Both the position numbers and the translations under genes were made by a program. Positions 1-24,276 of a DNA stretch of 24,276 nucleotides are shown here, in pieces (the stretch's first letter is position 1; every line of letters starts with the position of its first letter). The notes below the pieces were generated by a model. That model worked only from the letters and a program-made list of their open reading frames with translations, was not told where the DNA came from and ran no database searches. Source of the DNA: a virus; the IMG/VR virus record IMGVR_UViG_3300045988_119278; one strand, 5' to 3'.

Positions 1-119
1 CTCAAAGGAGAAAGCAAAATAAGTTATGGTATTGTCATCATTTATTTGTTTAAAATAATACATATAACAACCTCCTTACTCTACCCAAAAGGCATAGATA
101 TAATAATCTCTTGAACTTA
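1..119. repeat. Terminal overlap copy 1, identical to 24158-24276. Indicates a circular or circularly permuted genome with 24,157 bp unique length.
   Basis: Direct string comparison of the two window ends. The repeat lies inside coding sequence (3' end of CDS 76..507 and 5' end of the CDS annotated at 24065..24220). Confidence 0.95.
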
Positions 120-507
120 TAGAGATAGAAGAAGCATTACTCCACCCTATAGAAATTGTCTGTGTGGTTTTATCATAGTCAATGTAATAACTTATATCAG
201 TAATCTCTCCACCGGTCTGTATCCTTTCCACTATCCCTGTTGAAACATTGTATCTTGTAATAGCACCATTCATTACCATAACAAAAGTATAATTTGTTGG
301 AAGGTTTGTATTAGTTATTGTCTTAGTGCCATTCTTATTTTTTGGCATTGAAAAGCTTGTTGCCATTTGTATATACTTTAATTCCCCGCCACCTGCTTGA
401 ATACCCTAAATAGCAGTAGGTATAGCATCAAGGGTTAATAACTCTGTTCCGCCCGTCTTTTCTCTAATAGCTGAACCAATAGCAGAGAGTTTATCAGTAA
501 GTGCCAT
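76..507 (-). CDS. Structural, fibre-associated protein of unknown function, 143 aa, with 1 in-frame TAG (406-408)
   Basis: ATG at 505-507 overlaps the TGA stop of the upstream CDS. N-terminus is MALTDKLSAIGSAIREKTGGTELLTLDAIPTAI. Track ORF 76..366 is its C-terminal part in the same frame. TAA stop at 76-78. Confidence 0.6.
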
Positions 508-802
508 TCTCAATAACCCCCAATGCTTGATTGATTAATGTATTTACTTGGTCTGCGGTTTGGTAGCCTTTATTTTCAACTTCTGTCATAGTAGCATAAC
601 CACTCAAATCAGGCTTACCAGTTATATCATTCCAAGCAACCCCACCTACAGCAGAAGTATCTACCCATAATTTAATCTTATTATCAGTAGGAGCAACAGC
701 CCCTACTGATATTTCAGTTTTATCATTCACATAAGATTTAATTTGGGAAGACAACTTACTTAAACCGCTACCATTAATAATTTTATTATCAGTAGTTGCC
801 AT
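494..802 (-). CDS. Fibre-like protein carrying a G-Y-Q-T..QV..I motif, 102 aa
   Basis: Intact track ORF with RBS AAGAGGTG upstream of the ATG and a TGA stop. Motif NKGYQTADQVNTLI is shared with CDS 814..1386. Confidence 0.75.
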   Translation of the reverse strand: MATTDNKIINGSGLSKLSSQIKSYVNDKTEISVGAVAPTDNKIKLWVDTSAVGGVAWNDITGKPDLSGYATMTEVENKGYQTADQVNTLINQALGVIENGTY

Positions 803-813
803 AAGCGCACCTC

Positions 814-1386
814 TTAAACTGCGTCAGTCCAAATTTGATTAATTTCCGCATTGGTTAAGAAGTCAAGGCTAACAGAAGTATCTCCTATTACTTCCCACTT
901 GCTATTGATATAAGCATACTCAGTGTAAATATTACCCTCAGTGCCTTGCTCTTTCAATTTAAGATAAATCACATTGGAAGAACCAGTAGCAGGAAGATTC
1001 TCAACAATCTCAAACTTAAATCCACCAACACCACCAATAGCAGAAGCAATAGCGTCCTGAACCTGCTTAGAGGTCTAATAGCCCTTTCCCTCAACTGCGG
1101 TCATTGTAGTATAGCCCTTATCAGTAATTGCGGTTTCTACCTGAGCGCTTGTTTGATATCCTTTACCTGAAATGGCGGTATCTACGTCATTGGCGGTTTG
1201 ATATCCAGCACCATTTGTAAGTTGATTGTTATTAGTAGGAATAGTTGGAGTATTAGCAATGAGAGAATAATCTAACTTACTATCCGCACTAATCTTATCT
1301 TGCTTACTTGCTAAACCCTCTTTGACCTTTTGAGTATAAACTACTAATTGGTCGCCCTTTAATACTTTGTTATCATAACTTGCCAT
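814..1386 (-). CDS. Fibre-like repeat protein, 190 aa, with 1 in-frame TAG (1075-1077)
   Basis: Track ORF 1075..1386 ends at TAG. The same frame stays open to TAA at 814-816. Repeats are GAGYQTANDVDTAI, GKGYQTSAQVETAI, DKGYTT and GKGY[TAG]TSKQVQDAI. C-terminus is ...NVIYLKLKEQGTEGNIYTEYAYINSKWEVIG. Confidence 0.8.
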
Positions 1387-1401
1387 ATTTAAATGTCCTC
1401 C

Positions 1402-1662
1402 TTAATATGTTTGCCAAATGGCTAATATATCTGAGTTAGTGAGACTATCTAAGCCCACAACCTCACTTGAAATTTCTGCTTTCAATTCTTCTTTATCTTT
1501 TGGAGTGTAGTAATCAACACCCTTAACAGGGGTATCACCCTTATCTCCCTTATCCCCCTTATCACCTTTACCGCCTTTATCACCTTTATAGTAATCAACA
1601 CCTAAGTTTAAATTACCATTCAAAGATTCTTCAACAGAGAGAACACCTTTTATTTCAATCAT
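1402..1662 (-). CDS. Collagen-like (G-X-Y) repeat protein, 86 aa; fibre or capsid-decoration candidate
   Basis: Contains GDKGGKGDKGDKGDKGDTP. RBS AGGAGG is present, the ATG overlaps the upstream TGA (ATGA), and the stop is TAA. Confidence 0.8.
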   Translation of the reverse strand: MIEIKGVLSVEESLNGNLNLGVDYYKGDKGGKGDKGDKGDKGDTPVKGVDYYTPKDKEELKAEISSEVVGLDSLTNSDILAIWQTY

Positions 1663-1988
1663 TGTGTTACCTCCTATCCAATTTCAAAAGTGGCAAAGGG
1701 AACAACGGTATAAATCTTACCTCCAAAAGTGGTAAGTTGAATATCATAGCAATATGTTCCAATAGCAAGAGATTTAGTATCATCAGGTAAGAAGTCAATC
1801 ACACCTTTGCTTGCGGTTTTGGCAAAAGCAATCTGACTGTCTGCGGTCTTTCTTACTGTTAGCGTGATTGTATCATCATCAAATAACTATCTCTCTTTGC
1901 CTGTATTGTCATATACCTTAACTTTAAGTGAAGCATTATCGCCCTTAGTTAAGTATATCTTATTTGTTTTCTCATTGATTTTAAACAA
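1659..1988 (-). CDS. Small beta-rich (Ig-like?) structural protein, 109 aa, with 2 in-frame TAG (1887-1889, 1674-1676)
   Basis: RBS AAGGAGG plus a 9-nt spacer and a TTG start. The frame is open apart from TAG and ends in TGA overlapping the next ATG. It is not in the track because TAG splits it into pieces under 60 aa. Confidence 0.6.
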
Positions 1989-2002
1989 GGCTTTCAACCT
2001 CC

Positions 2003-2794
2003 TTATTCTATAATTGCCAAAATAGCACAGCGGTCATTAGCGTGAAATGGTGGAATAGTCTCGCCTACAACCGCTTCCTCAATCAAGAAAATCTTACCAT
2101 TCATCTATTTACATCTATCACAAGTTCTATCATCCTTAGCAGATAAAACCTGATACTTTTTGATTCCAGCTTGCTTGTATTTATCTAATGTGGCCTAATT
2201 CTGAACATAACTTAGCTCAGTTCTTGCCAAGCGGTCAGCCTGTCTATATCCAACATTAAAATCATTCATTAGCTACATAACCAACTAATCTTTGCTTGCC
2301 CCTCTGCTGATACAATCAATCAAACCTTTTTCCAAGCCAACCTGTAATTTTGCTTTGTTCTGCCATATTCTTGTGCTCCAGTTCTTACCATCCGCACACC
2401 AAACCGCATTAATAACTTCTTTTGCTTGCTTTTGGTTAAACTCACCTGAGAACCCCAATGATTGACCTACAGCCACGCTTGTTTTCTAATACATATCCAA
2501 CAACTTTTTATCTGTTATCTTTATTTCCTTTTGGCCTAATGCTTTCAACTGCTTATTCAAAGACTTAACCAAAGAGAAATATCTATTATATTTGTATAAA
2601 TCGCTTGCTAAAAGAGTGCCGTTATAACTACTTGCTATAATCTCATCATACAGGGCTATAATATCCTTTTTAACCTGCTCCATAGAGTAAACATATTGCT
2701 TACTTAACTCTTGCTGATACTCTAAAAGGGTCTTATCATAAAGCAGTTCTTTTTGTCTGGTTTCTCTTTTCAGCCAATACTTACTGCTGTTCAT
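2003..2794 (-). CDS. Head morphogenesis protein, SPP1 gp7 / Mu F-like, 263 aa, with 5 in-frame TAG (2486, 2285, 2273, 2195, 2105)
   Basis: Track ORFs 2486..2794 and 2285..2476 are in one frame. Read-through gives ...ARTELSYVQN.ATLDKYKQAGIKKYQVLSAKDDRTCDRCK.MNGKIF...PPFHANDRC, the MuF-type C-terminal motif. TAA stop at 2003-2005. Confidence 0.85.
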
Positions 2795-4103
2795 TTACTG
2801 TTTCCTCTTGGTTATTTTGGAAAGAATACATATCAATATTTGCTTGCTTCTGCTCTTCCAACTGCTCTAATTCCTTTTGAACATCACCAACAAAAGGAAG
2901 CTGTGCTAACAAGGTAGCATCACTTACCAAACCTCTTAATTGATTAACCATTTGAGCAATTTCCAAAGTATTAACGGGTAAGTTTCTTGTAAACACAATG
3001 TCAATATCTCTCCACATTGAATCCCCGCCCTTGATATTGATAACCTCACAGATTAACTCAATGCGTTTCTGTAATGCCTTAGTCATATTGGCAACTATGT
3101 TAGAAGAAACATTTTCAAAGCCAGTCAATTTATATCTCATACTAATACCAGAAGCAGACATAAACTTATCATCATTAAAATCAGGTGAATTAGCAATCTT
3201 ATGTATAGTATCATTAATGTTTTTGAGCATATTTTCAATCTGTGTGTCTGATACGCTCTTTGTTAAATAGCTGGCTTCTGCGTCTGCGTCCATAATAAGC
3301 ACTCTGTTTTGCTTCATTGCTTGTAAATCATCCGCATCAGCTTGAACGCCCTTTAAGATTAAGTAAGCATCGCAGAAAGATTCAAAATCATCTACCTCAC
3401 TTGATAAGAGTTTGTTGTATGCGTCCTGTAGGCTCATAACCTTATCAAAAATGCTTTCTCTCTCTTGGTTCAAGGGGAACACAGTAATAGGAACTTGTTT
3501 GAAATAGTTAGGTCTTTCTTCCAAGAGTGAAAGAACAGCAAAGCCAACTGAACTTTCATAAATTAGAGTGCGGTCTTTGCTATAAACTTCAATATAATAT
3601 TTCTCTTGTGCTTCATTGATATTATCAGCAACATAATATCTAATTACATAAAGCAACTCACTATTCAAGTCATTAGCATAGATAGGAATTACTTCTCTTG
3701 GGTCTAATACCTTGAATCTTTGTTTCCCTAATTCATCAATATAGTTAATCTCATAAGAACAACCATAAATCAATGCTTGTCTAAGATAATCATTATCCTC
3801 TGTCCGCACGTCATTATAGTTAAGAACATTTTGAATCTCTACAAAGTCTTTCTCTGACTGATAGGCAATATCAATACCCGTTAGATAGCCTAAGTAATTC
3901 TGAACTATGTTATAGCAATAGTTAGTTACAATGCGGTTACAGGGCTTTCCAACATCAGTAGAAGACTTATAAATGATATCCTGTTTGCCTTTGTAATATT
4001 TGTAATACTTGTTTAATATAGGTTTATCCTGAATCTCAAATTGCTAAATACACTTACTTATGTATTCAGTTGTCAATGGTGCTTTTTTATCTATGATAAA
4101 CAA
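2781..4103 (-). CDS. Portal protein (SPP1 gp6-like), 440 aa, with 1 in-frame TAG (4044-4046)
   Basis: Track ORF 2781..3809 continues upstream in frame to a TTG at 4101-4103 preceded by GGAGG. The N-terminus ...KPILNKYYKYYKGKQDIIYKSSTDVGKPCNRIVTNYCYNIVQNYLGYLTGIDIAY is portal-like. Stop is TAA. Confidence 0.9.
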
Positions 4104-4123
4104 ACTATTACCTCCTTTTTTGT

Positions 4124-5359
4124 TTATAAACCTAAAACCGCTTTATCCAAGGTTTTAAGTCCTGATTTAGTATATATATCTGAGTAAGCATATCTTAACC
4201 CATCAATACCGTGCGAAAACTCGTGCGTGTATTTGTCCTCTTGGTATTCTCCTTGTTTATCCTTTTGATATGAGAAATTGGATAGCTCAGTTATCAGGTT
4301 TTGGCATTTGGAACTAACTATAATGGTATGGTTTTGTAAAAAGGATAAACCTGCTTTAACCGAATCCTTACCTTTGATACAAGGAGCAACATAAAAGCCC
4401 TATTTTTTGAAATAGTCAATGCTTCTTGGTTCTGCGGAATCCATATAAATCTTAGTCTTTGCTAACTCCATTGTGCGGATTGCCTGACTTACAGTATCTA
4501 ACTGCTAACCCCTCTTGTAATACTCATTGAGAACATAGATTGTCTTATTTTGCTTGTCATACAATGTATCAATTATTGTTGTTGGGTCAATAAAGCCCAA
4601 GTCCGCGCCCGCTCTTCTTTCTAATCCAAGAGAGAGAAGATTTTCCGTATCTAAAATAGTTTCCTGCCAATTATGAAATACTAACCCCTCATCCGGCACG
4701 CCCCACTCACCAAAACAATAAACTCTGGCTTTATTTGGGTTTCTTGTTATAAGCTCTTCTAATGAATTTACATACTCCTAAGATAGAAAAGGATTATCCT
4801 TGTATGTTGTCTCACTAAAATAAAAACTTTTGGGCGGATTTACAACACAAAAGTCATAGAGCCAATGCGCTTTGCTTATGGGGTTAAAGGCCATTAGTAT
4901 TTGCTGATTTGGCACGGTGGAGCGCATACGCAAGTTCAACTGCTCCACAATATCCTTGCTTACCTCAAATACTTCCTCAATAAAGATTGTGCCTATATCA
5001 TTGAGAGATAGCAATTTAGTCTCTTCATCCAACCCCATAAAGATAATTTCAGAACCATTTGGGAACTTAATATTAAAGTCCGTTTCTCTGATTTTTACAT
5101 AGGGCAGAATCTACCACTTTGTTAGAATCTCTTTGAATAGGGAGAAACAGGTATTTCTTATTGTTGAGCCATATTTACGGCAAACTAAGATTTTGATTTT
5201 CTCAGAACAAGCCCTAATTATCAATTTCTAAGTGATAAAATAGGACTTGCCTGAACCTGCTGAACCTTTATAGACTTCCCACCTATGAGAGTAGTCCAAA
5301 AGCAAAGGAAATAATGTTTTTGAAAATGCGGACTTGTCTATATTTAAGGTTATTGACAT
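4124..5359 (-). CDS. terL: Terminase large subunit (PBSX/Terminase_6-like), 411 aa, with 5 in-frame TAG (5228, 5111, 4778, 4505, 4400)
   Basis: Walker A KGSAGSGKSYFIT[TAG]KLI. Track fragments 4778..5038 and 4505..4699 are in the same frame. The nuclease end is ...IYMDSAEPRSIDYFKK.GFYVAPCIKGKDSVKAGLSFLQ...HGIDGLRYA. TAA stop at 4124-4126. Confidence 0.93.
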
Positions 5360-5364
5360 TGTGC

Positions 5365-5556
5365 TTACTCTTTCTTATCTATCTTTTGATTCAATTTCTC
5401 AGCCTGAGTGCCAAAATAGAAAGCAGTAATAGTTGTGTAAATGGTAGTAAACTCCTATGGTATCTGCTTGCCCCAAATCAATAAAACGCAGAATACAATA
5501 GTAAGCAATAAGGTAACAATGCTTTTAACTGTAATCAATCTTTTTAATTCAGCCAT
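5365..5556 (-). CDS. Small two-TM membrane protein, 63 aa, with 1 in-frame TAG (5455-5457)
   Basis: GGAG RBS and ATG at 5554-5556. Sequence is MAELKRLITVKSIVTLLLTIVFCVLLIWGKQIP.EFTTIYTTITAFYFGTQAEK..., ending in TAA. It sits between terS and terL. Confidence 0.6.
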
Positions 5557-5560
5557 AAAA

Positions 5561-5932
5561 TCAATCTCCTGTTATGTTTATATGTATATTGTTGTTAAGC
5601 TCCGCCTGAACCTTTTGTGTTTGTAAGCCCGTCTGTTTCTGTAAGAGGTCTAAGGCTTTCAATCTAATATTCTGCGGTGTATCCTCACTAAAAGCCATTT
5701 CTGATAACTCATTAGCAATATGTTCAGGTGTAATGTGGTTTGCTTCAAATATTTCTTTTTCCAACTGACTTATTCTTTCTTTAACTTCTGGCATTTTCAT
5801 TAGGCGTGCTCCGCCTGCTCTTGCTGAATCGTTCTTCTTAGTAGCATATACTTTTTCATAAGCCTTGCCCGCATTATATTTACAAGCAATAAATTCACGG
5901 CAAAACATTTCCTGTTGTGTATTCAGTGCCAT
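5561..5932 (-). CDS. terS: Terminase small subunit, 123 aa
   Basis: Track ORF 5561..5953. I place the start at the ATG following GGAGGTG. Sequence MALNTQQEMFCREFIACKYNAGKAYEKVYATKKNDSARAGGARLMKMPEVKERI matches the Terminase_2-type N-terminus. Stop is TGA. Confidence 0.8.
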   Translation of the reverse strand: MALNTQQEMFCREFIACKYNAGKAYEKVYATKKNDSARAGGARLMKMPEVKERISQLEKEIFEANHITPEHIANELSEMAFSEDTPQNIRLKALDLLQKQTGLQTQKVQAELNNNIHINITGD

Positions 5933-5965
5933 AATCAGCACCTCCAAGAGCAAAAGTAACTCTTT

Positions 5966-6064
5966 TTATTTCTCATTGTAGTCATACCCCATCTTAACAA
6001 GCGCTCCACCAAACAAGCATCCAATAGCAAAAGTAATTGCCCCTGTAATAAACATTCCAATCAT
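5966..6064 (-). CDS. Hydrophobic 32-aa peptide (MIGMFITGAITFAIGCLFGGALVKMGYDYNEK)
   Basis: GAGG RBS, ATG overlapping the upstream TGA (ATGA), and a TAA stop. It is too short for homology support. Confidence 0.4.
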   Translation of the reverse strand: MIGMFITGAITFAIGCLFGGALVKMGYDYNEK

Positions 6065-6162
6065 AATATTACCTCACTTATAATTTTATATTCTTTTAAT
6101 AGTGCGGTCAGTAGTTCTAATTCTGCCACACACTCATTAATTGTGTTGCTAATTGTATCCAT
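6061..6162 (-). CDS. 33-aa protein (MDTISNTINECVAELELLTALLKEYKIISEVIL); first ORF of the long minus-strand operon
   Basis: RBS AAAGGAG with a 7-8 nt spacer and ATG at 6160-6162. The TGA stop overlaps the next ATG. Confidence 0.45.
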   Translation of the reverse strand: MDTISNTINECVAELELLTALLKEYKIISEVIL

Positions 6163-6304
6163 TTTTAATACTCCTTTAATTATAAAATATTTTTTTATCA
6201 AAGTCATGCGGACGGGCAATTAAATTTGCCACGATTTTTTATAACTTTGATAAAGTGTAAGCAAAAACAATTTTTAATTAATTCTGGCTTACTACAATTC
6301 AATA

Positions 6305-6346
6305 TCCAATAGCAAAAGAAATAGAGAAAGTCCAATAGCAAAAGAA
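6305..6346. repeat. Two direct copies of TCCAATAGCAAAAGAA (6305-6320 and 6331-6346), 26-bp period
   Basis: Exact 16-mer duplication in the intergenic region upstream of the structural operon. Related copies occur at 6020-6033 (+), 7237-7249 (-), 22880-22889 (-) and in variant form around 6451-6470. Confidence 0.8.
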
Positions 6347-6376
6347 TTATGTAGTTCTTTCTATTGTATATAATTT

Positions 6377-6841
6377 TTAATTAAGTGCGGTTTTTGTGTT
6401 TTGCCCGCCCTTGTTATACTGTTTTACGTGCTCTATCACCATTTCCGCACTTGCTTTCTTGGCTATTGGATTCACTGTATAATGTATTCCGTCCTCTTTT
6501 GGTATTTGGTAATTCATTATAGGCACATACTTTCTAATCCATTTACCTTCAACAATTAGCAAGTTCTTTTTATTGGGGACATACTCTAACACCTCAAAAC
6601 AAAGGGTATAACCCTGTTGGATTATACCCCTAAATACATCATATTTATGTTCTGGTAAGTTTAGTTTTGTATTAACCTAATGCGCTAAGATTCTTTTTAA
6701 TAAATTACTTGCTTTACCAATATAAATGATAACACCATCTATCTTAATACAATAAATACCCGCTTTATCTAAGTGCGGTTTTTGGTTTTTGATTTCCTCA
6801 TATTGCTATATCATTGTTTTGTAATATATATTATCTTTCAT
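6377..6841 (-). CDS. GIY-YIG nuclease (homing-endonuclease-like), 154 aa, with 2 in-frame TAG (6806-6808, 6677-6679)
   Basis: RBS AAAGGAG and ATG at 6839-6841. Sequence is ...KAGIYCIKIDGVIIYIGKASNLLKRILAH[TAG]VN...LLIVEGKWIRKY. Track ORF 6377..6592 is the C-terminal part in the same frame. Stop is TAA. Confidence 0.8.
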
Positions 6842-6960
6842 TGGGGTTACTCCTTTCTTATTTAAAAGTGTAAAAATTATTTGCGGGCGGAACTCCTATT
6901 TAGTGCTTGTGCGGAAACACCCAGCGGGGAAGTTCCTTATAATTTTCTTTTCCATTCTTG

Positions 6961-7007
6961 TTATATGGGGGCTTCCGCTCTCCAAGGCGGAAAAGCCCAC
7001 CATATAA
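6961..7007. other. Long imperfect GC-rich hairpin (about 20 bp stem, loop TCTCCAAG), preceded by a second stem 6889-6894/6931-6936
   Basis: TTATATGGGGGCTTCCGC / GCGGAAAAGCCCACCATATAA pair with two small bulges. The segment is locally GC-rich in an AT-rich genome. There is no adjacent T-run and no convincing ORF. Confidence 0.55.
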
Positions 7008-7042
7008 CTATACTCTGTATAGTCTCTATAATATTTCTGGTA

Positions 7043-7079
7043 GAAATTTACTACCACATAAAGATGAAATTTACTACCA
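7043..7079. repeat. Direct repeat GAAATTTACTACCA x2 (7043-7056 and 7066-7079), followed by short palindromes up to about 7135
   Basis: Exact 14-mer duplication with a 23-bp period. Nearby inverted repeats are CAACTT-ATA-AAGTTG and CACTTT-TGA-AAGTG. Confidence 0.7.
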
Positions 7080-7146
7080 AGTTTTTGAAAATTTCAACTT
7101 ATAAAGTTGATATTTTACACTTTTGAAAGTGGAAATTTTCCTTTCC

Positions 7147-7422
7147 TCACACTCCATCATCAAAACTTAGTCTACTATTAAAATAAGCCTTAAAAGTGCT
7201 TATAACCTATAGATACTCATTATCAGGATAATTCATCTTTGCTATTGGATTATTAGGATTCTATTTCTTCCACTAACCAAAAGTATCATAAAGTTCCCCG
7301 TGTTTCTTTTTGTATTTAATCTCTTCATTCATTAGCGCTCTATGGCTTGCGCGCACTAATTTACCTACCACATTCTCAACATATTCAAATGGATAATCAG
7401 GTGTGTATTTTTCTTTTGCCAT
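7147..7422 (-). CDS. Hypothetical protein, 91 aa if 3 TAG (codons 50, 54, 72) are read through; 49 aa otherwise
   Basis: Strong RBS AAAGGAGG and ATG at 7420-7422. The frame is open apart from TAG down to TGA at 7147-7149. Confidence 0.5.
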
Positions 7423-7436
7423 TGTTATTTCCTCCT

Positions 7437-7916: not shown

Positions 7917-7918
7917 AA

Positions 7919-8068
7919 TTATTTCTCCTTATTATTAAATTGAGCCATATACCATTTAACCGCTTCTCTAATTAATTGTGATACTGGTATATCTTTTTCT
8001 TTAGCCATTCCCTCAATAGCTTCTTTTAATTCTTCATCAAATCTAACTGTTGCTCTATAATCTTTCAT
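7919..8068 (-). CDS. Ribbon-helix-helix (CopG/Arc-like) protein, 49 aa
   Basis: Sequence MKDYRATVRFDEELKEAIEGMAKEKDIPVSQLIREAVKWYMAQF. The ATG overlaps the upstream TGA and the stop is TAA. Confidence 0.75.
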   Translation of the reverse strand: MKDYRATVRFDEELKEAIEGMAKEKDIPVSQLIREAVKWYMAQFNNKEK

Positions 8069-8226: not shown

Positions 8227-8269
8227 CAATTTACTCCTTGTGTTTGTCAGCGTTTGTCTCCCTCCGCTC

Positions 8270-8992: not shown

Positions 8993-9039
8993 TCTTATCT
9001 CTCCTTTTTATCTTTGTTTTTCCTTTATCTTATATATAT

Positions 9040-15141: not shown

Positions 15142-18100
15142 TTAAACCATAACAAGGGACGTTCCCATTTGTTTCTTTTGTGCGGTCTGCTCCTTAGTAA
15201 TGCGTCTTGTAACCTTTGCTGTATCTATATAAACATCCATATTTTTGTCATCTACACTCTTGGAGATTTGGTTTCCAATAGCAAAGATAGCATTAATGAT
15301 ACTAGTATTAGCGTCTTCCATTGTCTCTCTCATAAGAGACTGCGGGGTTACTATTTCAGGGTTATTAGAAGCACCTGTGTATTCACCCATTAAACCTACT
15401 GTTGGGCTATTAAGAACACCGCCATTAGCAAAGGCTCTCATTTGTGGAATGTTAATATTTTTGGCTTGATTCTTTAAGTTAATCTTACTATTGGTGTTAA
15501 AGGTGTAAGTGTTCTTTTTCTTTTTATCCTTACCAAACAAATCATTGATAGCATTTCCAAGATTATTAATGCCCTCAATTAATCCATCAATAAAGCCCTC
15601 AAAAACACCGCTAATAGAATCAAGAATGCCTAAGACAATTTCTTTAATTCCCGTCCAAGCCTTTTCCCAATCGCCAGAGAAAACACCTGTTAAGAAGTCA
15701 ATTATGCCTGTCAAAACATCAGCAATTCCGCCTATGATAGAAGCAATCATTTCAATACCGCCAACTAATACACCAAGGACGGTAGAAATAACTACACCAA
15801 CAACCTTAATTATTTCTCCAAGAACAACTGATAACTTATCCCAAACGTCTTTTACTGTATCCCACAAATCAGAAAGAGACGGTTTGAGAGTGTTTTCCCA
15901 TAGCTCTTTAATTCTATCTACTAATGGTTTTAAATGCTCTTCCCATAACTCTTTTAATACGTTAATAATCTTATCAATAGTGGGTTTAAGATTGTTATTC
16001 CATAAATCCTAAATAGAATTTCTAAACTCTTCATTGGTATTCCAAAGATGAACCAACAAAGCAACAACCGTAGCAATAGCAACCGCAATCAAAGCAAACG
16101 GGTGAGCGCTAATAATAGCCCATAATCTGCTAAAGCCAGCGCCTACAGATTTAACGGTTGATTCTAATATCTAAAGTCCACCGCCAGAACTACCAATAGC
16201 AGTCATTGAAGCAGTCCATTCAACTCTCATAGCATCTAAGATAGATTTAAATGGAGTGAATAAGTGCGTATTGAGTGCGGTTTTGAATGGGGTAAAGAAT
16301 ATCATATCTAACTTTTCAAAAGCCAGTTTAAAGGGTTCAGTAATAAAGTAGCCTAAATCACCCTCTGAATTACCCTCTTTGATAATTTGTTTAAAACCTT
16401 TCCAAGCATTACCCGCCTAATCTGTGCCAGTGACAAATCCCATTAAACCATCTTGGATATTAAGAAATGCTTTTGCTGTGAGTGTTCCACCTGCTATTAA
16501 CAACAAATCAGTTATAATGCTCTTTAGCGTTTCAGGCTTCATAGTAATAAGGCTTGTAGCTATACCCTATAAAGCATCATTGATAATGGTTAAAGCAGTT
16601 GCTAAAACATTCCAAGTGATTCTTAATAAGTCTCCTATAATTGTGCTAATAGGTTCAACAATTTCACCTAATGTAGTTCCAAACTAAGCAATGTTATCTT
16701 TGTTGGTAATAAACCACTCTGACCATCCTTTGAATATTCCAGTAATCCAAGTAAGCATACTATCAGCAACGTCTCCAATAGCCTGAACCAAAGGACTTAA
16801 ACCAATATTATAGAAATTTTCTAAAGCAGGAACAACAGCACCAGTAATACTACTTGCTAACTCTGTAAAGGCTTCAACTAAACCTAAAATATCATTACCC
16901 AATCTACCAATATCTAAATCATTAGCAATATCAATTCCAATAGTGATAACGAATGAACCCCATCCAGCAATGGTATCAAGTAGATTCTTTCCTATGTTTT
17001 GTAAATTATTTTTAGCTTTCTCAGTATCAAAGTTAATCTCTAACTTGGGGATTGTGCTTTGCCACTTATTAAGTATTTCCTGACAATCTTTTACAAACTA
17101 TTCTAAGCGTGTTTTAACGCCCTCTGTTTGTGTCTCATCAACCTTAAAATCAGCAATGTTTCCTGCTCCAATGTCTGAGCCTGTATTACCAGAATCAGGC
17201 TTTTTTTCTTCCTCTTTTGGATTTAATACATTTAGTTCATCAAAACCCGCTATTGTTCTGGATAGCTTTTTAGCACTCTCATTAGCATCCCCCAAGCCCG
17301 CATCTAAATCACCTGCTGAACCTGCTGAATCTTTGATTGTGGTAGACATATTGTTTGTGGTCTTACCGCCAAACACCTTTGTAATAGCGTTTCCAATAGA
17401 GATAAGAGAAGCCAACATTTGATTCAAGGCTTTTACCATTGGGGTAAGTATTTTAATTAAACCGCTACCTAAAATGCCTAAAAACTGCGTCCATTGCTCT
17501 TTAAGTAAGCGGATTTGGTTAGCCCAACTACCTGACGTTCTGGCAAAGTCCCCTTGTGCGTTCTTAGTAGCATTGAGAACATAATTGTATCTTAGAGCAA
17601 CCTTTTCAGCCTGAGACATTGCTTGATAACTCTTTTTAATACCTTGTGATAAAGCAAATGCTTCTAAATTAGTTTCAGTAAGAACAATACCAAATTTCTT
17701 TAAGCTTTCTGTCTCTCCTGTAAATATTGAGTTTAATGCGGTTTGGGCTATATCCTATCCAACGTTGTAGAAAGATGCCATATCACCCGCCAGCGCAGTT
17801 AATTGAAGAGACATATTCTTTCCTGCTTCTTGTGCTATGTCCATACCGTTAGACATAGCCATAAAAGTAGATGCCATTCTCTTAGCAGTCAAAGCGCTCA
17901 TACCATAACTTCTAACAGCGGTATTGGCAAAAGCTTCAACCTCATCAGTCATAGAGCCAAATGACACATCTACTACATTTTGAACTTCCTCTAAATCAGA
18001 AGCCATATTGATAGCTTGCTTACTTAATAAGCCTAACTATCTTATAATCAGAGCAAATCCTACACCCTTAAACATATTCTTAAAAGAATTATTTATTTTC

Positions 18101-18219
18101 TTACAAGATTTGTCTGTTGTTTTCTCTAATTTTTGAAGTTGCTATTGCGTTTGGCTAATCTGCTTTTTCAATCCAGCGGTTTCCGCAGTAATAACAACTT
18201 TTAATTCTTCAACTGTCAA
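15142..18219 (-). CDS. Tail tape measure protein, 1025 aa, with 9 in-frame TAG
   Basis: Track ORFs 17755..18006, 17098..17619, 16684..16902 and 15142..15867 share one frame. I translated all gaps and found only TAG (18142, 18037, 17755, 17098, 16684, 16567, 16417, 16171, 16009). TMP core motif ..TGETESLKKFGIVLTETNLEAFALSQG..AEKVALRYNYVLNATKNAQGDFARTSGSWANQIRLL. TTG start follows GAGGGG. Stop is TAA. Confidence 0.9.
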
Positions 18220-18940
18220 TTTTTCACACCCCTCTATTTATTATGGGCTATGGCAAAGTCAATCATTTGTTCCTTGTAAATCATCCAACTCATATCCTCT
18301 TCTATTGGCTTTTCCTCTTGGAATTGAGTAGGATAAAGTTCATTGATATCAGGTATCTATTTGCCAGCCAAAGAACAGTTAACAAAACCGGCAATCATTG
18401 AAGCCAAATTATAGTTGCTTGCTAATATTTCCTTTGCCCTTATTTCTTCTTTCTCTTGGAATGTTTGAATAAGTAAGTTAATCTCACCTATTGTCATATT
18501 CCAATAGTCAAACAATGAAATTCCACACTTTAATGCTATGGGGAGTAGTTGTTGAAATAGTTCTGTGAGAGTATCAGGGGTTTTCTAATTACTCTCACTT
18601 GTTAGTTTTTTTCCTCTTCATCCTCAACTTTAAAAAATCCGCTCACTTTGAATACGTCCATAAGGATAGGAATTAAGTCCATCATTGTATTTCCATCATC
18701 AACAAACTTATCATATAACTCATAGGTCTTATCAATAGTCATACCGTGGTTGTATGCGGACAGGGATGCTTGAAAGATGCTAATAAGCACGCTCAAATCA
18801 GGAATTGAACCATCCTCAGCAATCTTAGCAAAGACGTTTAGAGGGTTAGTTCCAAGTTTCTTTTCTAAATCAACACAAGCCTTAGCATTAAGTCTTGCTT
18901 TGTAATCAGTTCCACCAATATTAATAACAGTATATAACAT
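18216..18940 (-). CDS. Tail assembly chaperone -1 frameshift product (gpGT-like), about 241 aa; the extension carries 3 in-frame TAG (18585, 18357, 18234)
   Basis: The -1 frame is open from 18617 to TGA at 18216-18218 apart from TAG, and that TGA overlaps the TMP TTG start. The extension reads ..LTSESN.KTPDTLTELFQQLLPIALKCGISLFDYWNMTIGEINLLIQ.. Confidence 0.65.
18602..18940 (-). CDS. Tail assembly chaperone (gpG-like), 112 aa
   Basis: Intact track ORF located between the major tail and tape measure genes. It ends ..FKVEDEEEKN with TAA directly after the slippery heptamer. Confidence 0.85.
   Translation of the reverse strand: MLYTVINIGGTDYKARLNAKACVDLEKKLGTNPLNVFAKIAEDGSIPDLSVLISIFQASLSAYNHGMTIDKTYELYDKFVDDGNTMMDLIPILMDVFKVSGFFKVEDEEEKN
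18605..18611 (-). promoter_or_regulatory. Slippery heptamer A_AAA_AAC for -1 programmed ribosomal frameshifting
   Basis: The zero frame is GAA AAA AAC TAA, giving an X_XXY_YYZ pattern immediately before the gpG stop. The window between the -1-frame TGA (18618-18620) and the zero-frame stop is only 13 nt. Confidence 0.65.
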
Positions 18941-18965
18941 AACAAAATCTCCTTTAAGTTTATAA

Positions 18966-18999
18966 TAAAAAAGAGGGGCTATTATATAAATAACCCCTC
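18966..18999 (-). terminator. Hairpin plus T-run after the major tail protein gene
   Basis: Minus strand reads GAGGGGTTAT-TTATATA-ATAGCCCCTC followed by TTTTTT. Confidence 0.7.
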
Positions 19000-19006
19000 A
19001 TTCCAA

Positions 19007-19426
19007 TCAAGTATTAGGATTGGTTACAGCAATATCACTATTGAGTGTGATATTTGCGGTAAAGGTAATAGCATTATTAACGCTTGCGCCATCAATAGAA
19101 GTAGTTACTTCGCCAGAGAAAGCAAACTCAGTGTTATCAGGGAAAGTAACTTTCCATTCAACAACTTTTCCTGCTTCTTCTAATCCACGGACAATGCGGT
19201 AATTGGAAGTAGCACCGCTATTGTCATAGAGGAACTTAAAAGCCAAATCGCCAAAATCCTTTACACCATTAATATACTTTTTATTGCCGTCTGCTAAAAC
19301 AGTTACGTCAACCTTTTCAGCAGTTCCGCCTAAATCTGGGCACTCTTGTAAATTGAGGATTTCCTCATAAGCAGAACCCTATTTCTTGTAAGATAGTTTA
19401 ATACCCTTGGTCAAAATGCCAGCCAT
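19007..19426 (-). CDS. Major tail protein (phi13/TP901-1-like), 139 aa, with 1 in-frame TAG (19379-19381)
   Basis: AAGGAG RBS and ATG at 19424-19426. Sequence is MAGILTKGIKLSYKK.GSAYEEILNLQECPDLGGTAEKVDVTVLADGNKKYINGVKDFGDLAFKF.. Stop is TGA. Confidence 0.88.
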
Positions 19427-19448
19427 AAAAAAATCTCCTTTTCAAAAA

Positions 19449-19790
19449 TCAATTTTCATAACCCATAGCTTGATAGCCTAAGATTAATTCTAATTGTTCT
19501 GCTCCATAAGATAACTCATTGTAAGAAGTTCTTTTGAACCCCTATTTGCGCATCACTTTATCAATCTTATCTAAGTATGGGGTTAAATCACCTAACCGCT
19601 TACCCCACAATTTAATGTTGTAAGATAATCGGCTATAAAGCAAAGTGTCTCCCTCCAAATCCGCATAATTACCTGCTTCAATGTAGGTAATACAAGGAGT
19701 AGGAGTTGAGCCATTAACAAATAACTCATAATAAACGGGCAAGCCCAATGTTTCCAAATTGCTTTTTAGAGTTGGTTTATAGTCAATCAC
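19449..19790 (-). CDS. Tail-completion / head-tail joining protein, 113 aa, with 1 in-frame TAG (19542-19544)
   Basis: GTG start in a GTGA overlap with the upstream stop, preceded by AAGGAG. Track ORF 19542..19790 continues in frame to TGA at 19449-19451. Confidence 0.7.
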
Positions 19791-20206
19791 TTTAACTTCA
19801 CTCCTTTTTTAATTTGCTCTTTAAACATCTTTTCTATTTTCCTGCGGTTTTCCTCTAAGGCAGGTTGTAAGTAAGGCTAAGGGTGTTGGCCTATGGTAGA
19901 GTGCCATTCACCTTTAGCATCTTTGTATTTCCATCTATCCTATCTACCATTTCCAAGAGAGGAATAAATACCTGTGCCAAACTCAACATAAGGAGCATAT
20001 TCAACATTAGTTCCTACAACTCCTACAAGTTCATCTGGATTATCTTCTATGTAATGGGTAATGGAGTTTCTTAAAAGCCCATTATCAACAGGACATTTTA
20101 TCTTTGCTTCATTCTCTACCAAAATACAAGCCTGCTCCATTGCCTAATTTACATTATCCAACTTTTCTAACTTACTTATTAATTTGTCTAAGTTTTCAAT
20201 AGCCAT
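19787..20206 (-). CDS. HK97 gp10-family head-tail protein, 139 aa, with 3 in-frame TAG (20144, 19940, 19877)
   Basis: Sequence ..AKIKCPVDNGLLRNSITHYIE..VGTNVEYAPYVEFGTG...HP.PYLQPALEEN matches the gp10-family signature. RBS AGAGGGTG. Stop is TGA. Confidence 0.85.
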
Positions 20207-20208
20207 TA

Positions 20209-20499
20209 TTACACCCTCTTCATTAAGATTTGGTGTAATCTTGAAGTAGGAATAACATACAGCACCTTATAAGTATCATTGCCAACTTGAACCTAATCTT
20301 TATCAGTAATCAAAGCATCCTTAGTAAGTCCAATAGTGGAAACATCCGTATATCTAACATCACTTGTATTGCTTTGCTGATAAAGCTTTACCACCATTTC
20401 TACTTCTCTTTTGGATTCACCCATAACAGGCTAACCATACTCATCTAATCCAGAAGTATAAGAAGTAATGATTGCGGTTTGCCACTCTCTATTAATCAT
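20209..20499 (-). CDS. Head closure / head-tail adaptor protein, 96 aa, with 2 in-frame TAG (20431, 20293)
   Basis: The ATG overlaps the upstream TGA. Sequence is MINREWQTAIITSYTSGLDEYG.PVMGES...VQVGNDTYKVLYVIPTSR. Stop is TAA. Confidence 0.8.
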
Positions 20500-20786
20500 A
20501 TGGTAATTAACTTTCTTTGCGATTTTAGGGCGCGCATAATACTTTCAGGGTAGTCAGTGGAATACCCAAAGCTAACTCCTGAGTATCCCTCTGAATCTAA
20601 CCCCTCTGTCCCTAACCTGTTATATTTATATACTACCATTGAAATAATGGTGGAACTCAAATTATCAATACTATCTTGGTGTGTATAATTTAATGCTTCT
20701 TCAATAGCCTATTCAATAAGTAATGTTAGTAAATCATCCTTAGTATCATCTTTAATACCTAATATCAACTTTAATTTATCTAACAT
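20496..20786 (-). CDS. gp6-like head-tail connector protein, 96 aa, with 1 in-frame TAG (20709-20711)
   Basis: AGGAGG RBS. Sequence is MLDKLKLILGIKDDTKDDLLTLLIE.AIEEALNYT...VVYKYNRLGTEGLDSEGYSGVSFGY. Stop is TGA. Confidence 0.85.
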
Positions 20787-20808
20787 TTACTTACCTCCTA
20801 TTAGTTAA

Positions 20809-21612
20809 TTAAGCCTGTGCTTCTTTAATGGAGCAAATCTTAGTAGCATCAGCAAGGGCTACAAGGTAAGTAGCACGCATATAAACGCTATTCTTTCTGG
20901 TATCAGGATTGCGGTCAGGCTCAACCTCAACATCTTTCTTGATGAAGAGTTTGACGGCTTCTTTGGTCATAACAAAGGCAGAATCAGTAAGAGCCTTAGT
21001 AGCAATAACGGGAATACCGCAAATAGTGCCAACCTATCCGTTGTAAATAACCTGTCCCATCATAGCACTCTTATAGTCTTCATCCTTGCGGAGAGATGCT
21101 TTCCAAGTGTTAGGAATGAGAATGAATAACTGGCTTTCGTCTTCAAGGTTGAGAGTGCTAATAGCATCAACAATGGTATCATAGTTAAGAGCGCCACCCT
21201 TAGCAAAAGTAACACCCAAAGTAACATCAGTGCTCTTAACAGCACTAATAAAGTCAGCGGTCATCTTGTTAGTCATTACCTGAACTGCGCCTCTCATCAT
21301 ACCATCAACAATAAAGGGGTCTTTCATTGCTTCCTCATCGGTATAATCATAAGCCTGTTGGCAGAGCTTTACACGGTAATCTTTACCAGTATAAGAGATA
21401 GAACCACGCTTAGAAGCGGTATTACCAACGCCATTAGCAAGTTCCTCAGCTTCACCCTTATAGGTGTAAGTATTAACAGTTTTAAGCATACCCGCGCTTT
21501 CTGCTAACTCATTATCAATAGTCATAAGAGAACGGGTATTAAGAGAGGTGGTAAGCAAGTCTTTTGCTACGCTCTCGACGATTTTATTATCAAATACAAC
21601 ATTAGTTGCCAT
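20809..21612 (-). CDS. Major capsid protein, 267 aa, with 1 in-frame TAG (21034-21036)
   Basis: AAGGAG RBS and ATG at 21610-21612 (MATNVVFDNK..). Track ORF 21034..21633 continues in frame through ..QVIYNG.VGTICGIPVIATKALTDSAFVMTKEAVKLFIKKDVEVEPDRNPDTRKNSVYMRATY.. to TAA at 20809. Confidence 0.9.
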
Positions 21613-21634
21613 AACGAAAAATCTCCTTTTCAAA

Positions 21635-22132
21635 TTAATTCACTAATTCAAAATGAAGTCCCTTTAAGGTTTTCTATCTTCCATTAATCATATGACTTAC
21701 AGCACTATAATCAACTCCAAGAGCCAAAGAAGCATCTCTGCCAGATTTATAAACAACTCCTGTTTCTACACATCTTATAGGTTTGCTTATCTTTTGAGAT
21801 GCCTTTTCATTCCGTGTGCCATAATTTATGTTATAACTGCGGGAACACCATTCTAAATTGTTTTCTTTATTATTATCTTTGTTTTCATCCTTATGGTTTA
21901 CACAAGGATAATTGTTTGGGTTTGGTATAAAATGAAGCGCAACCAATCTACTAACCTATTCTCTTTTTACTTTGCCATTAATAGCATACAAGCAAACAGT
22001 GTGATAGCCTTTTTGGTTTTTATGATGCTTCAAATATATTTGTCTTTTCTTGCTCCAAACCCTACCCATATTACTAATCTAATAGTTTGGGTATCCTTTA
22101 ATATCCATCCAGATTTCATTGTTCTCCAACAT
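21635..22132 (-). CDS. HNH homing endonuclease with a NUMOD4-like N-terminus, 165 aa, with 3 in-frame TAG (22081-22083, 21953-21955, 21674-21676)
   Basis: Sequence is MLENNEIWMDIKGYPNY[TAG]ISNMGRVWS...VSRLVALHFIPNPNNYPCVNHKDENKDNNKENNLEW...HMINGR[TAG]KTLKGLHFELVN. GGAGG RBS and TAA stop. It is inserted between the scaffold and capsid genes. Confidence 0.88.
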
Positions 22133-22146
22133 AAGTAACCTCCGTT

Positions 22147-22707
22147 TTAATTAAAAAGTTGAGAGTAAAGGTCAGGATTTTCATTAAGCAACTTTTGTCT
22201 TTCCATAATACCCATCTTCTTAGCCTGTTCCTTTGTAATGGTCTAATCAAGGGGTAAGTTCTTCTTTGGTGTGTTGCTACTCAAACGCTTTTCAACTTCT
22301 AATTTAACACTTTGTTTAAATGCCTTATCCAGTAGAGAGATGTTCTTATTCATAGTTTCAGCATCCTCAGCAACGACAAAATCAACTAAACTTAATGATA
22401 ATCCCTTTTCAGCAAGAATCTTTCCTGCTTCATTACGATTTTCAGCCAGAGCAAGGGCTTTTTCCTTTTCTACAATAGCCTTTTCTCTTTGCTCCAACTC
22501 ATATTGATATTTCTCTTGCTCATTCATTTGAGCCAGTCTTTGTGCTTCTTTTACCTTTTCCTGATTTTTAATCTCAGCTTTCTTTAATGCGGAACTCACA
22601 CGTCTATCAGTTTCCTTTTGTAAAAGAGCGTCAACTTCTTCCTATGTGTAGGATTTAGGTTCAGTGTTATTATTTTCTGCCCCTGTTACCTGCTTATTTT
22701 CTTCCAT
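22147..22707 (-). CDS. Scaffolding protein (DUF4355-like), 186 aa, with 2 in-frame TAG (22642, 22243)
   Basis: AGGAGG RBS. It has a charged coiled-coil core and the C-terminus ..TITKEQAKKMGIMERQKLLNENPDLYSQLFN. It lies immediately upstream of the capsid region. Stop is TAA. Confidence 0.8.
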
Positions 22708-22790
22708 AATATTAACCTCCTAAGTTTATGCCTTAAAGCATACCCTTTAATTAAAATATGAGTTTTATTTCTAACCATCAATTAAATATA

Positions 22791-22825
22791 AGAAAAGGGG
22801 TAGAGCGTTTTATTAACTCTGCCCC
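22791..22825 (-). terminator. Hairpin plus T-run after CDS 22873..23061
   Basis: Minus strand reads GGGGCAGAG-(11 nt)-CTCTACCCC followed by TTTTCTT. Confidence 0.65.
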
Positions 22826-22872
22826 AAATCTATTAACATTTTACAAAATTTTTTTAACTAAGTCCAATAGGA

Positions 22873-23061
22873 TTAGTCTGCTATTGGAACTTCAATGTAG
22901 TTATCAATACTATCATTAGAGCCAATGAATAAGGTTCTAACATAGAGGTGTTCTTGCTCTTCTTCCCCTTTTTCATTGGTGTGGCTTTTTGGTTCTCTCC
23001 AATCAAAAACTTTTCCTTTATCACTATCATATCTGATTAAATCAAAACTTTTTGCTTTCAT
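22873..23061 (-). CDS. Hypothetical 62-aa protein
   Basis: Intact track ORF with AAGGAG RBS and a TAA stop, followed by a terminator. Confidence 0.6.
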   Translation of the reverse strand: MKAKSFDLIRYDSDKGKVFDWREPKSHTNEKGEEEQEHLYVRTLFIGSNDSIDNYIEVPIAD

Positions 23062-23073
23062 ATAACATTCTCC

Positions 23074-24084
23074 TTATACAAATGATACAGTCCATCCTTT
23101 TGCGGTTGCTACTGCTATTTCTTCCTCAGTCATAGTGTTAATAGCTCCACCGTCAGTTTTAGCTCCTTGAGCGCCTTCAAATTTAATTGTATTAGTTCCT
23201 CCTGCTGTAGCTAAATAGGCACTTGTGTCAGGTAGTGAGTTAATAGTTTCTACAGCTGAAATGCGATTATAACGGGAATAATTTATATCCGAAGTCCAAC
23301 TATCAGGGTCATCTTTTAAAGCCTAATATGTAGCATCGTCTTTAATTTGCTTTGTTGATGAAAAACCATACTTGTCGGCATAAGAACCATAACCAACGGT
23401 TTTAGTTAAATCTATTATTTGGCTTTTCCACTCTACTACCTAATTAGGGTCAAAAGTTAAGCGCTTTAAACGCTAACACAGGTCAAAAGTAGAAACAAAC
23501 GCATTATAAGTCATTTTACCACTCATTATTGGAGCACCTAACCCAATGATTTCATCTAAAACATAACAAAAACGGAATCCATTAAAGTATATTAAATTAC
23601 GCTTACTACTATTTTCTAATTTAGTTAATTCTAATACTTCTGTAGGGATTTTTCTTAAATATTTAGCACTATAAAAGCAATTATCTAATCCAACTTGTTT
23701 AAATGAACCTGCTGGCGGTAATACAAAAACATTGTCTAAAGTCTAAATTTTTGAATTTTCAATAATATTATTCATACTTAAAGAGTAGTTATTTCCGACT
23801 GAATTTAAGTTTATTTTAAAGGGGATAGAAGTTAATTTTGAATTATAAAACATATAATTACAATAGCGGACTCTTTTTAATTGTATTTTATCTTTATACT
23901 TTGTTATAAACCAATCCCAAATACCATTATAATTAAAATAAGAAAAATTAAAATCAGTATAACCAGTGGTATTTCCAAAAGTCAATTCCTATTGAGTAGG
24001 AGCGGGCATATCACTTATTTCGTAGGCAACATTCTTACTTGCCACTTTCCATTCATTACCATCTTTATATTTCAGCACTGGCAT
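23074..24084 (-). CDS. BspA/DUF285-type leucine-rich-repeat protein (adhesin or receptor-binding candidate), 336 aa, with 5 in-frame TAG (23989, 23743, 23473, 23440, 23323)
   Basis: AAGGAGG RBS and ATG at 24082-24084. LRR-like units are ..RVRYCNYMFYNSKLTSIPFKINL.., ..NCFYSAKYLRKIP.. and ..TFDLC.RLKRLTF.. The C-terminus is ..MTEEEIAVATAKGWTVSFV. TAA stop at 23074. Confidence 0.75.
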
Positions 24085-24220
24085 TTGCTTCATCCTCCTT
24101 AATAGCAAGTATGTATTCTTCTTTTGTCATAGGATACATATTACCACTCACTTTTGGCTCAAAGGAGAAAGCAAAATAAGTTATGGTATTGTCATCATTT
24201 ATTTGTTTAAAATAATACAT
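24065..24220 (-). CDS. Hypothetical 51-aa protein. Its 5' end lies in the terminal overlap and is also seen at 1..63.
   Basis: GGAGG RBS and ATG at 24218-24220 (equivalent to 61-63). Sequence is MYYFKQINDDNTITYFAFSFEPKVSGNMYPMTKEEYILAIKEDEANASAEI. Stop is TAA. Confidence 0.5.
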   Translation of the reverse strand: MYYFKQINDDNTITYFAFSFEPKVSGNMYPMTKEEYILAIKEDEANASAEI

Positions 24221-24276
24221 ATAACAACCTCCTTACTCTACCCAAAAGGCATAGATATAATAATCTCTTGAACTTA
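24158..24276. repeat. Terminal overlap copy 2, identical to 1-119
   Basis: Direct string comparison. Confidence 0.95.

Follow-up and report, generated by a model that had tools for sequence, protein, structure and literature searches.

Genome structure and gene content

We analysed a viral contig of 24,276 nucleotides (IMG/VR record IMGVR_UViG_3300045988_119278; hereafter the window), whose genes are interrupted by in-frame TAG codons. An earlier note, made from the letters alone, had read these codons as an amber stop reassigned to sense in a small temperate siphovirus-type genome. Bases 1-119 of the window are an exact direct repeat of 24158-24276 (family D3, 119 nt, 100% identity), and because this terminal identity represents an assembly overlap, the assembly is circular. 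A temperate siphovirus-type phage is represented in the window by its entire circular genome, with a unit of 24,157 bp and a GC content of 35%.

With TAG read as sense, the gene map is contiguous and lies nearly all on the minus strand (35 open reading frames (ORFs), 7,220 codons, 65 TAG). During curation two spurious antisense ORFs were dropped and two plus-strand genes and a small RHH gene were added, giving 36 genes and 7,262 codons. Matches to PHROGs and Pfam gave a standard siphovirus layout (Table 1). The packaging and head set comprises TerS, TerL, an SPP1-type portal, MuF, a scaffold (DUF4355), and an HK97-fold major capsid protein (MCP), and the connector and tail set comprises connector proteins, a tail terminator, a major tail protein, two chaperones, a tape measure protein (1,025 aa), and a DUF6711 protein. 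Two homing-type endonucleases are encoded (GIY-YIG, and HNH with NUMOD4), along with a regulatory and lysogeny set of a winged helix-turn-helix (wHTH) replication-initiator-like protein, RHH proteins, and a tyrosine integrase. Among GenBank phages, the closest TerL proteins are only 38-39% identical and belong to Bacillus and Clostridium phages; a whole-genome megablast search of GenBank phages returned nothing.

TAG is the only codon that interrupts the genes

The curated genes contain 64 in-frame TAG codons alongside 156 CAA and 68 CAG codons, TAG making up 22% of glutamine-type codons. In-frame TGA or TAA occurred 0 times in 7,262 codons, the genes having been delimited as TAA/TGA-free ORFs, and the genes end at 25 TAA, 11 TGA, and 0 TAG codons. 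Five of the TGA stops share bases with the start of the following gene (ATGA, GTGA or TTGA; g05/g04, g14/rhh, g24/g23, g28/g27, and g30/g29). TAA and TGA are the only stops in the phage, and since TGA ends 11 genes and is never found in frame, genetic codes 4 and 25 are ruled out.

We compared ORF coverage under different codes by greedy tiling. Coverage rose from 58.6% under code 11 to 89.8% when TAG was taken as sense (34/35 ORFs on one strand); in control tilings it was 65.7% with TGA as sense and 80.4% with TAA as sense, the latter with ORFs spread over both strands and none exceeding 407 aa. Minus-strand ORFs of at least 100 aa total 4,174 aa under code 11 vs 7,146 aa with TAG as sense, and the longest extends from 444 aa to 1,072 aa. 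Profile matches also run through the TAG codons, covering residues 8-437 of 440 in the portal and 11-1022 of 1,025 in the tape measure protein and crossing TAGs in TerL (Terminase_3, 25-218; Terminase_3C, 253-393). Gene calls stored with public assemblies of the phage already cross TAGs, as in the 411-aa TerL and the 1,072-aa tail protein, and code-11 annotation badly fragments the genomes of such phages.

These results agree closely with the earlier note. Its hand count of about 63 TAG in about 7,300 codons was nearly that of the curated genes, and its counts for TerL, portal, MuF, tape measure, Tal, MCP, scaffold, HNH, and the 344-aa protein were exact (Table 1). It had correctly placed a TAG at 12756, which is codon 669 of the 1,072-aa tail protein. 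Its statements that every break translated by hand is a TAG, that coding sequences end at TAA or TGA, that TGA is a genuine stop, and that read-through restores complete domains were all borne out, and the difference in coding density under codes 11 and 15, which it had suggested as a check, is large.

TAG codons gave no sign of acting as a 5' gate, with no excess in the first 30 codons (12/64 vs 29/224 glutamine codons, P = 0.31) or by relative position. In this genome, the base following an in-frame TAG (n = 64) was G in 52% of cases vs 33% after CAA/CAG, and T in 9% vs 17% (chi-square P = 0.03 vs CAA/CAG, and 0.004 vs all codons). T after a stop is the strongest context for termination by release factor 1 (RF1) in E. 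coli, and the skew may reflect a context that favours read-through. In g12, an unknown gene adjoining the replication initiator, TAG is the sole glutamine-type codon, with no CAA or CAG; its count of four TAG codons becomes three if the gene starts at its first ATG.

TAG behaves as a glutamine codon

Next, we investigated which amino acid is read at TAG. Window proteins with X at each TAG were aligned by tblastn to 87 related loci, which were collected by TerL and MCP searches of IMG/VR, one GTDB genome scan, and an exact integrase look-up, and the emission model for TAG identity was built from the substitutions that each ordinary residue shows in these alignments. At window TAG columns, 468 cells of standard-code relatives held Gln 115 times, Glu 62 times, and Lys 57 times, with 0 stops, so that the homologs ending at TAG positions that the earlier note had named as a possible refutation were not seen. 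Glutamine is the maximum-likelihood residue, ahead of Lys by 165 nats and of Glu by 259 nats. It is kept in 25% of cells at TAG columns vs 29% at ordinary Gln codons, and the E/K spectrum at TAG columns equals that at ordinary CAA/CAG positions. Because glutamine retention is alike at both kinds of column, TAG behaves as a regular Gln codon. At TerL codon 44, an invariant Gln beside Walker A, the window has TAG and 24 relatives have CAA or CAG. In the reciprocal test, in-frame TAGs of relatives faced a window TAG 128 times, Q 69 times, E 28 times, and K 19 times.

We also compared the window with loci of the same species from independent assemblies (n = 19). Window TAG codons were kept as TAG with 37 exceptions, 31 of which were CAG/CAA and 6 other codons. 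These differences between assemblies appear to be population-level synonymous variation, and since TAG, CAG, and CAA alternate within the species, both an assembly artefact, a concern that the earlier note had raised, and decay of the genes are excluded. Taken across these alignments, the reading of TAG as a sense codon for glutamine in the phage is well supported.

Recoding is shared by the closer relatives

Relatives with a TerL identity of at least ~70% carry 8-14 in-frame TAG per 1,000 aligned codons, vs essentially none in ~40 more distant relatives, and in-frame TAA/TGA is essentially absent in recoded and standard-code relatives alike. TAG is the rarest stop of the standard-code relatives (25/378, vs 267/378 for TAA), which matches the 'TAG depletion first' route to recoding that has been proposed as a model (Borges et al., 10.1101/2021.08.26.457843). 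Intermediate TAG densities of 4-6 per 1,000 codons were found in L038, L073/L074, and L078, compared with 9-14 in the core clade and 0 in others, and these loci may be early or partial recoding stages. The 14 TAG counted in a MuF-like ORF of L078 may be an artefact of frame or fusion.

The relatives reside in metagenome-assembled genomes (MAGs) of Clostridia, Faecousia, and Acutalibacteraceae, and also of Oscillospirales. One of them, L038, is a distant TAG-recoded prophage (15 in-frame TAG); the Clostridia MAG contig that holds it is 145 kb long, and code 11 leaves the flanking genes unbroken. An integrase identical to that of the window is listed in 137 collection blocks, and the phage is a clean, complete, and very widespread example of recoding.

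The integrase lies in a TAG-free island and the phage integrates at tRNA-Leu(CAG)

While recoding covers most genes, the term 'genome-wide' used in the earlier note does not extend to an island of ~2.5 kb (8714-11255) that lacks in-frame TAG. This island contains g15, p1, the HTH protein p2, the integrase, the attP core, and g19, and p1 and p2 are the only two plus-strand genes of the genome. No TAG was found among the 15 Gln codons of the island (P = 0.018, given that TAG accounts for 23% of Gln-type codons elsewhere) or among the 10 of the integrase alone (P = 0.07). Three recoded lineages have an integrase without TAG (window, 0/10; L072, 0/15; L038, 0/15 Gln codons). In L038 (5889-6310), p1 and p2 are 66% and 51% identical to those of the window, compared with just 33% for the integrase and 49% for the portal; none of the standard-code loci, nor the recoded subclade of L003 type, gave a match to p1/p2.

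One base pair of the variable arm is exchanged in compensatory fashion (C-G to T-A) between the attP tRNA parts of the window and of L001, and L001 (10-97) carries the full tRNA at its junction. Upstream of int on the minus strand (10725..10951), the order is promoter, tRNA fragment, strong terminator hairpin (10753-10725), and int. The promoter (10951-10924) is a perfect 12/12 sigma-70 consensus (TTGACA, 16 nt, TG extended -10, TATAAT). From this layout, integration would cut the promoter off from int, which would limit expression of int from that promoter to the circular form.

In four assemblies (L046, L048, L049, L050), host tRNA-Leu(GAG) and tRNA-Leu(CAG) directly precede the identical integrase (L046 9708-9902), and integration into the 3' end of tRNA-Leu(CAG) rebuilds the host tRNA. 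Beyond these tRNA genes lie host genes for SIR2, cation efflux, SpoVAD/SpoVAC, and a glycosyltransferase. The temperate lifestyle given in the earlier note is therefore directly shown, since these four assemblies hold the phage integrated beside host genes.

The host flank, of which ~10 kb is seen, has a GC content of 54-56% (core genes ~60%), vs 35% in the phage. Its ~16 distinct genes have no credible in-frame TAG, vs 9 per 1,000 codons in the phage. Two 'host' ORFs of L048 with in-frame TAG were disregarded, as they look like spurious antisense ORFs in GC-rich DNA. Among host-flank stops (L046, L049), TAA is dominant and TAG rare; amber suppression would consequently cost the host little. 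The host SpoVAD sequence exactly matches one named 'Oscillospiraceae bacterium' and 'Hominenteromicrobium sp.', and its 90% cluster also holds Oscillibacter sp. ER4. By these matches the host is a gut Oscillospiraceae bacterium (Hominenteromicrobium/ER4-like); it most probably uses the standard code.

No decoder was found in the phage or its recoded relatives

We searched for factors that could decode UAG. ARAGORN detected no CUA tRNA in the window (default, -ps80, -ps70 with introns, and mitochondrial/armless mode), and Rfam gave no tRNA match in the window at E <= 5. A tRNA-like signal at 10761-10851, also a weak match to a tmRNA 3' end, proved to be the attP copy of the 3' part of tRNA-Leu. 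No suppressor tRNA was present in any locus of the recoded relatives, including five recoded contigs that are fully or almost fully covered (L003+L070, L004+L072, L007+L071, L033+L059, and L001+L057); the only tRNAs in contigs of recoded relatives are host Leu and Thr genes at prophage junctions. Neither a release factor (RF2) nor an aminoacyl-tRNA synthetase (GlnRS) was matched by Pfam or PHROGs in any window ORF, and the five covered recoded contigs, which represent two subclades, likewise have no RF2 or GlnRS. The window contains no pyl genes or pyl tRNA. Blastn of all intergenic regions against the 87 loci gave no tRNA-like conserved noncoding element. The intergenic conservation corresponds to an AT-rich promoter region, also found in standard-code relatives, and to a terminator and covarying hairpin before the scaffold ribosome-binding site (RBS), none of them tRNA-like. 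Likewise, no protein was a consistent candidate for tracking recoding: p1/p2 miss the L003-type subclade, and g15 and g19 are confined to the closest relatives.

Since the phage brings no suppressor tRNA, RF2 or GlnRS of its own, UAG has to be read with the help of the host or of a factor acting in trans. UAG is naturally read, as a near-cognate codon, by tRNA-Gln(CUG), and read-through of this kind becomes efficient on depletion of RF1. On this basis, UAG decoding would most likely be supplied by the host or triggered by an unrecognised factor. The near-cognate tRNA-Gln(CUG) could read UAG once competition from RF1 drops, a suppressor tRNA could be provided by the host or a co-resident element, or an unrecognised small phage product could be responsible. 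UAG decoding without an encoded suppressor tRNA is an open question common to about half of code-15 phages, as Sup-tRNA(CUA) was detected in 40% of TAG-recoded phage genomes (Borges et al., 10.1101/2021.08.26.457843) and Sup-CTA in 52% of code-15 phages (Cook et al.). The clade-wide absence of recoding hardware is the only aspect of real interest here.

It is conceivable, if on balance rather doubtful, that the lineage carries no recoding hardware at all and that the change from TAG to Gln is driven by an unrecognised small TAG-free phage product or by a suppression-competent state of the host. Candidates for such a product would be g15, p1/p2, and g19, which might, for example, lower RF1 activity so that host tRNA-Gln(CUG) reads UAG. 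If this were true, the phage would have a tRNA-independent genetic-code switch governing lysis vs lysogeny, and the search for it would be a manageable one, the 24-kb genome having only ~11 ORFs free of TAG.

Other features of the genome

The HNH/NUMOD4 gene, with its three in-frame TAG codons, sits between the scaffold and MCP genes, which are directly adjacent in the relative L001 (97% identical). This adjacency marks the HNH gene as a recently inserted mobile element, one that itself uses TAG as a sense codon. The region upstream of the scaffold gene (22708-22872, minus strand) is conserved across recoded subclades (L059, L060, L069, L072) and contains a terminator-like hairpin followed by a short stem-loop with compensatory changes (TATGC..GCATA vs ATTGCG..CGCAAT) right before the RBS. 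This region may serve to regulate the late operon.

The 1,072-aa tail protein has Big_3 repeats and a long glycine-rich C-terminal domain (11544-12400, minus strand) with a weak Gly_rich_2 match; this domain accounts for repeat family D1. An 86-aa fibre-associated protein (1402-1662, minus strand) carries a collagen-like (GDK)n repeat. The 344-aa protein, earlier labelled an 'LRR protein', had no Pfam or PHROGs family match. Pfam and PHROGs gave no endolysin and no classified holin among the ORFs, the host being a spore-forming Firmicute. The only lysis-related candidates may be two small transmembrane (TM) proteins (5365-5556 and 11331-11531), the latter with a TAG at codon 2.

Table 1. Positions of features in the window, with the number of in-frame TAG codons where counted.
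Feature	Position	Strand	In-frame TAG	Remark
Recoded arc, first part	76..8271	-		continues at 11331..24108 across the circle junction
Fibre-like genes g01-g05	within 76..8271, before MuF	-
MuF	2003-2794	-	5
Portal	2781-4103	-	1
TerL	4124-5359	-	5	411 aa
TM protein	5365-5556	-	1
TerS	5561-5953	-	0
GIY-YIG endonuclease	6377-7057	-	3
g12	7147-7452	-	4
g13	7437-7916	-	1	wHTH replication-initiator-like protein
rhh	7919-8068	-	0	RHH
g14	8065-8271	-	2	RHH-like
TAG-free (standard-code) island	8714..11255	both	0	~2.5 kb
g15	8714-8992	-	0	acidic, first early gene
p1	9352-9540	+	0
p2	9542-9724	+	0	HTH protein
Tyrosine integrase	9736-10662	-	0
attP core	10762..10833	-		copy of 3' part of tRNA-Leu(CAG), anticodon loop to CCA
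g19	10992-11255	-	0
Recoded arc, second part	11331..24108	-
g20	11331-11531	-	1	TM protein
Tal/fibre	11544-14762	-	5	1,072-aa tail protein
DUF6711 protein	14767-15129	-	2
Tape measure	15142-18219	-	9	1,025 aa
Tail chaperones	18216-18940	-
Major tail protein	19007-19426	-	1
Tail terminator	19449-19790	-	1
Neck1	19787-20206	-	3
g29 and g30	20209-20786	-		connector-type
MCP	20809-21633	-	1
HNH endonuclease	21635-22132	-	3	with NUMOD4
Scaffold	22147-22707	-	2	DUF4355
g34	between scaffold and 344-aa gene	-
344-aa protein	23074-24108	-	5

The genetic code may partition lysis and lysogeny

We consider it highly probable that the window is a complete temperate phage with TAG as a glutamine codon and a TAG-free lysogeny side, in which the genetic code may gate the choice between lysis and lysogeny. 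TAG occurs in structural, packaging, tail, homing-endonuclease, and early/replication genes, and is absent from the genes of the putative lysogeny side (integrase, p1/p2, g15, and g19). A naive host ribosome would make the integrase and the repressor-side proteins and no full virion protein, and the virion genes would be truncated until amber suppression became available. Standard-code translation would thereby lead to integrase and the establishment of lysogeny, and lytic development would need a cell state that reads UAG as Gln. A code-gated partition of lysis and lysogeny has been proposed by Borges et al. (10.1101/2021.08.26.457843), and this is the most likely function here, the regulatory role being inferred. 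Prophage and host occupy one cytoplasm with different genetic codes, and the code boundary coincides with the boundary between lysogenic and lytic genes.

Several points weigh against this proposal. Taken by itself, this genome lends the TAG-free island no more than modest significance. TerS and a tail chaperone are TAG-free in the window and not in the relative L004, and TAG-freeness, the integrase apart, is not conserved. Early genes (g11-g14) carry TAG, including the replication-initiator-like g13 and the RHH-like g14, so that a simple scheme of early genes in standard code and late genes recoded fails here. No decoder is encoded, which leaves the mechanism of the switch unexplained, and the glutamine identity is derived from alignments.

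Among other explanations, the one that survives best, although we regard it as very improbable, is that the code of the phage matches that of its host, which would read TAG as sense or be a constitutive amber suppressor, with no conflict between codes and no switch. The lack of a suppressor tRNA in the phage and its recoded relatives fits this explanation, as does the need for TAG read-through even in early genes, and the cost to the host would be low, given that 1/26 of the host-flank gene calls listed ends in TAG (L046, L049, L048; partly the same genes). A host tRNA(CUA) could also lie outside the ~10 kb of host DNA that was covered. However, a host that reads TAG as sense is at odds with the ~16 flank genes that lack the codon so frequent in the phage. 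A TAG-free integrase in three lineages would be pointless were TAG always readable, and Borges et al. report standard-code hosts for such prophages (10.1101/2021.08.26.457843).

Slightly less probable still is that TAG encodes another residue (pyrrolysine, Lys, Glu or Tyr) or a near-cognate mixture. Glu and Lys do rank second and third in TAG columns, and there is no cognate tRNA to fix the identity, but the likelihood margins in favour of Gln, an E/K spectrum and a Q retention close to those of ordinary CAA/CAG positions, the preponderance of CAG/CAA among strain differences at window TAGs, and the lack of pyl genes all argue for glutamine.

We give next to no credence to a decaying, non-functional prophage that lost its genes to nonsense mutations. 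All large genes are indeed interrupted under code 11, but TAG is the sole interruption, without TAA, TGA or frameshift in 7,262 codons, TAG positions are conserved over dozens of assemblies and two subclades, the contig is circular, the proteins align over their full length, and the identical integrase recurs in 137 collection blocks. Equally negligible is a sequencing or assembly artefact such as a systematic CAG miscall, for which we found no supporting point, as the same TAGs occur in assemblies of different studies and assemblers (IMG/VR, ENA, Logan) and CAG, present 68 times, stands side by side with TAG in the same genes.

The phage lends itself to studying how UAG is decoded, since its genome is small, its attB in tRNA-Leu(CAG) is defined, and its host genus has a name.

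Comparison with known recoded phages

The crAss-like and Lak code-15 phages resemble the window in reading TAG as Gln and in having recoded late genes, and for crAss-like phages Peters et al. report the TAG-to-Gln change as validated by metaproteomics (Peters et al. 2022, PMC9523058). These phages differ in genome size (~100-660 kb vs 24 kb here) and in their Bacteroidetes hosts, and Sup-tRNA(CUA) is frequently encoded by them, as is RF2 by some Lak phages, whereas neither was found in this phage. Moreover, Borges et al. analysed their crAss-like set as virulent, while this phage is temperate. A closer likeness in size is the Garnet clade prophage in Prevotella (Borges et al.), which at 24,371 bp is also TAG-recoded, with a TAG-free integrase and a standard-code host, but its host is a Bacteroidetes, in contrast to the Clostridia/Oscillospirales MAGs that hold the window relatives.

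The earlier note implied that a compact 24-kb integrase-bearing recoded genome would be novel, which does not hold, as TAG-recoded phages as small as 14.7 kb have already been described, along with the Topaz clade (22±3 kb, temperate, Oscillospiraceae hosts) (Borges et al., 10.1101/2021.08.26.457843; Nat Microbiol 2022). The same work includes a curated 23,706-bp Topaz prophage beside a tRNA gene in an Oscillospiraceae genome, with a 24-kb circular twin and a TAG-free integrase, and finds Topaz integrases to be TAG-free (P = 1e-16; 10.1101/2021.08.26.457843). The case presented here is real and clean and its interpretation is supported, but it is not new, small TAG-recoded phages having been described in 2021-22.

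The window shares with Topaz its genome size (24.2 kb here vs 22±3 kb), TAG read as Gln, structural genes recoded as one unit, a TAG-free integrase, an Oscillospiraceae host, integration beside a tRNA gene, and a low-GC phage in a higher-GC host. It differs in that early and replication genes are recoded here as well, and in that integration occurs at tRNA-Leu(CAG), whereas the curated Topaz prophage lies beside tRNA-Thr; the relative L004 (72% TerL identity) does have tRNA-Thr at its contig end. Likened through the published description rather than through TerL phylogeny, the window would fit Topaz feature for feature, the integration tRNA excepted.

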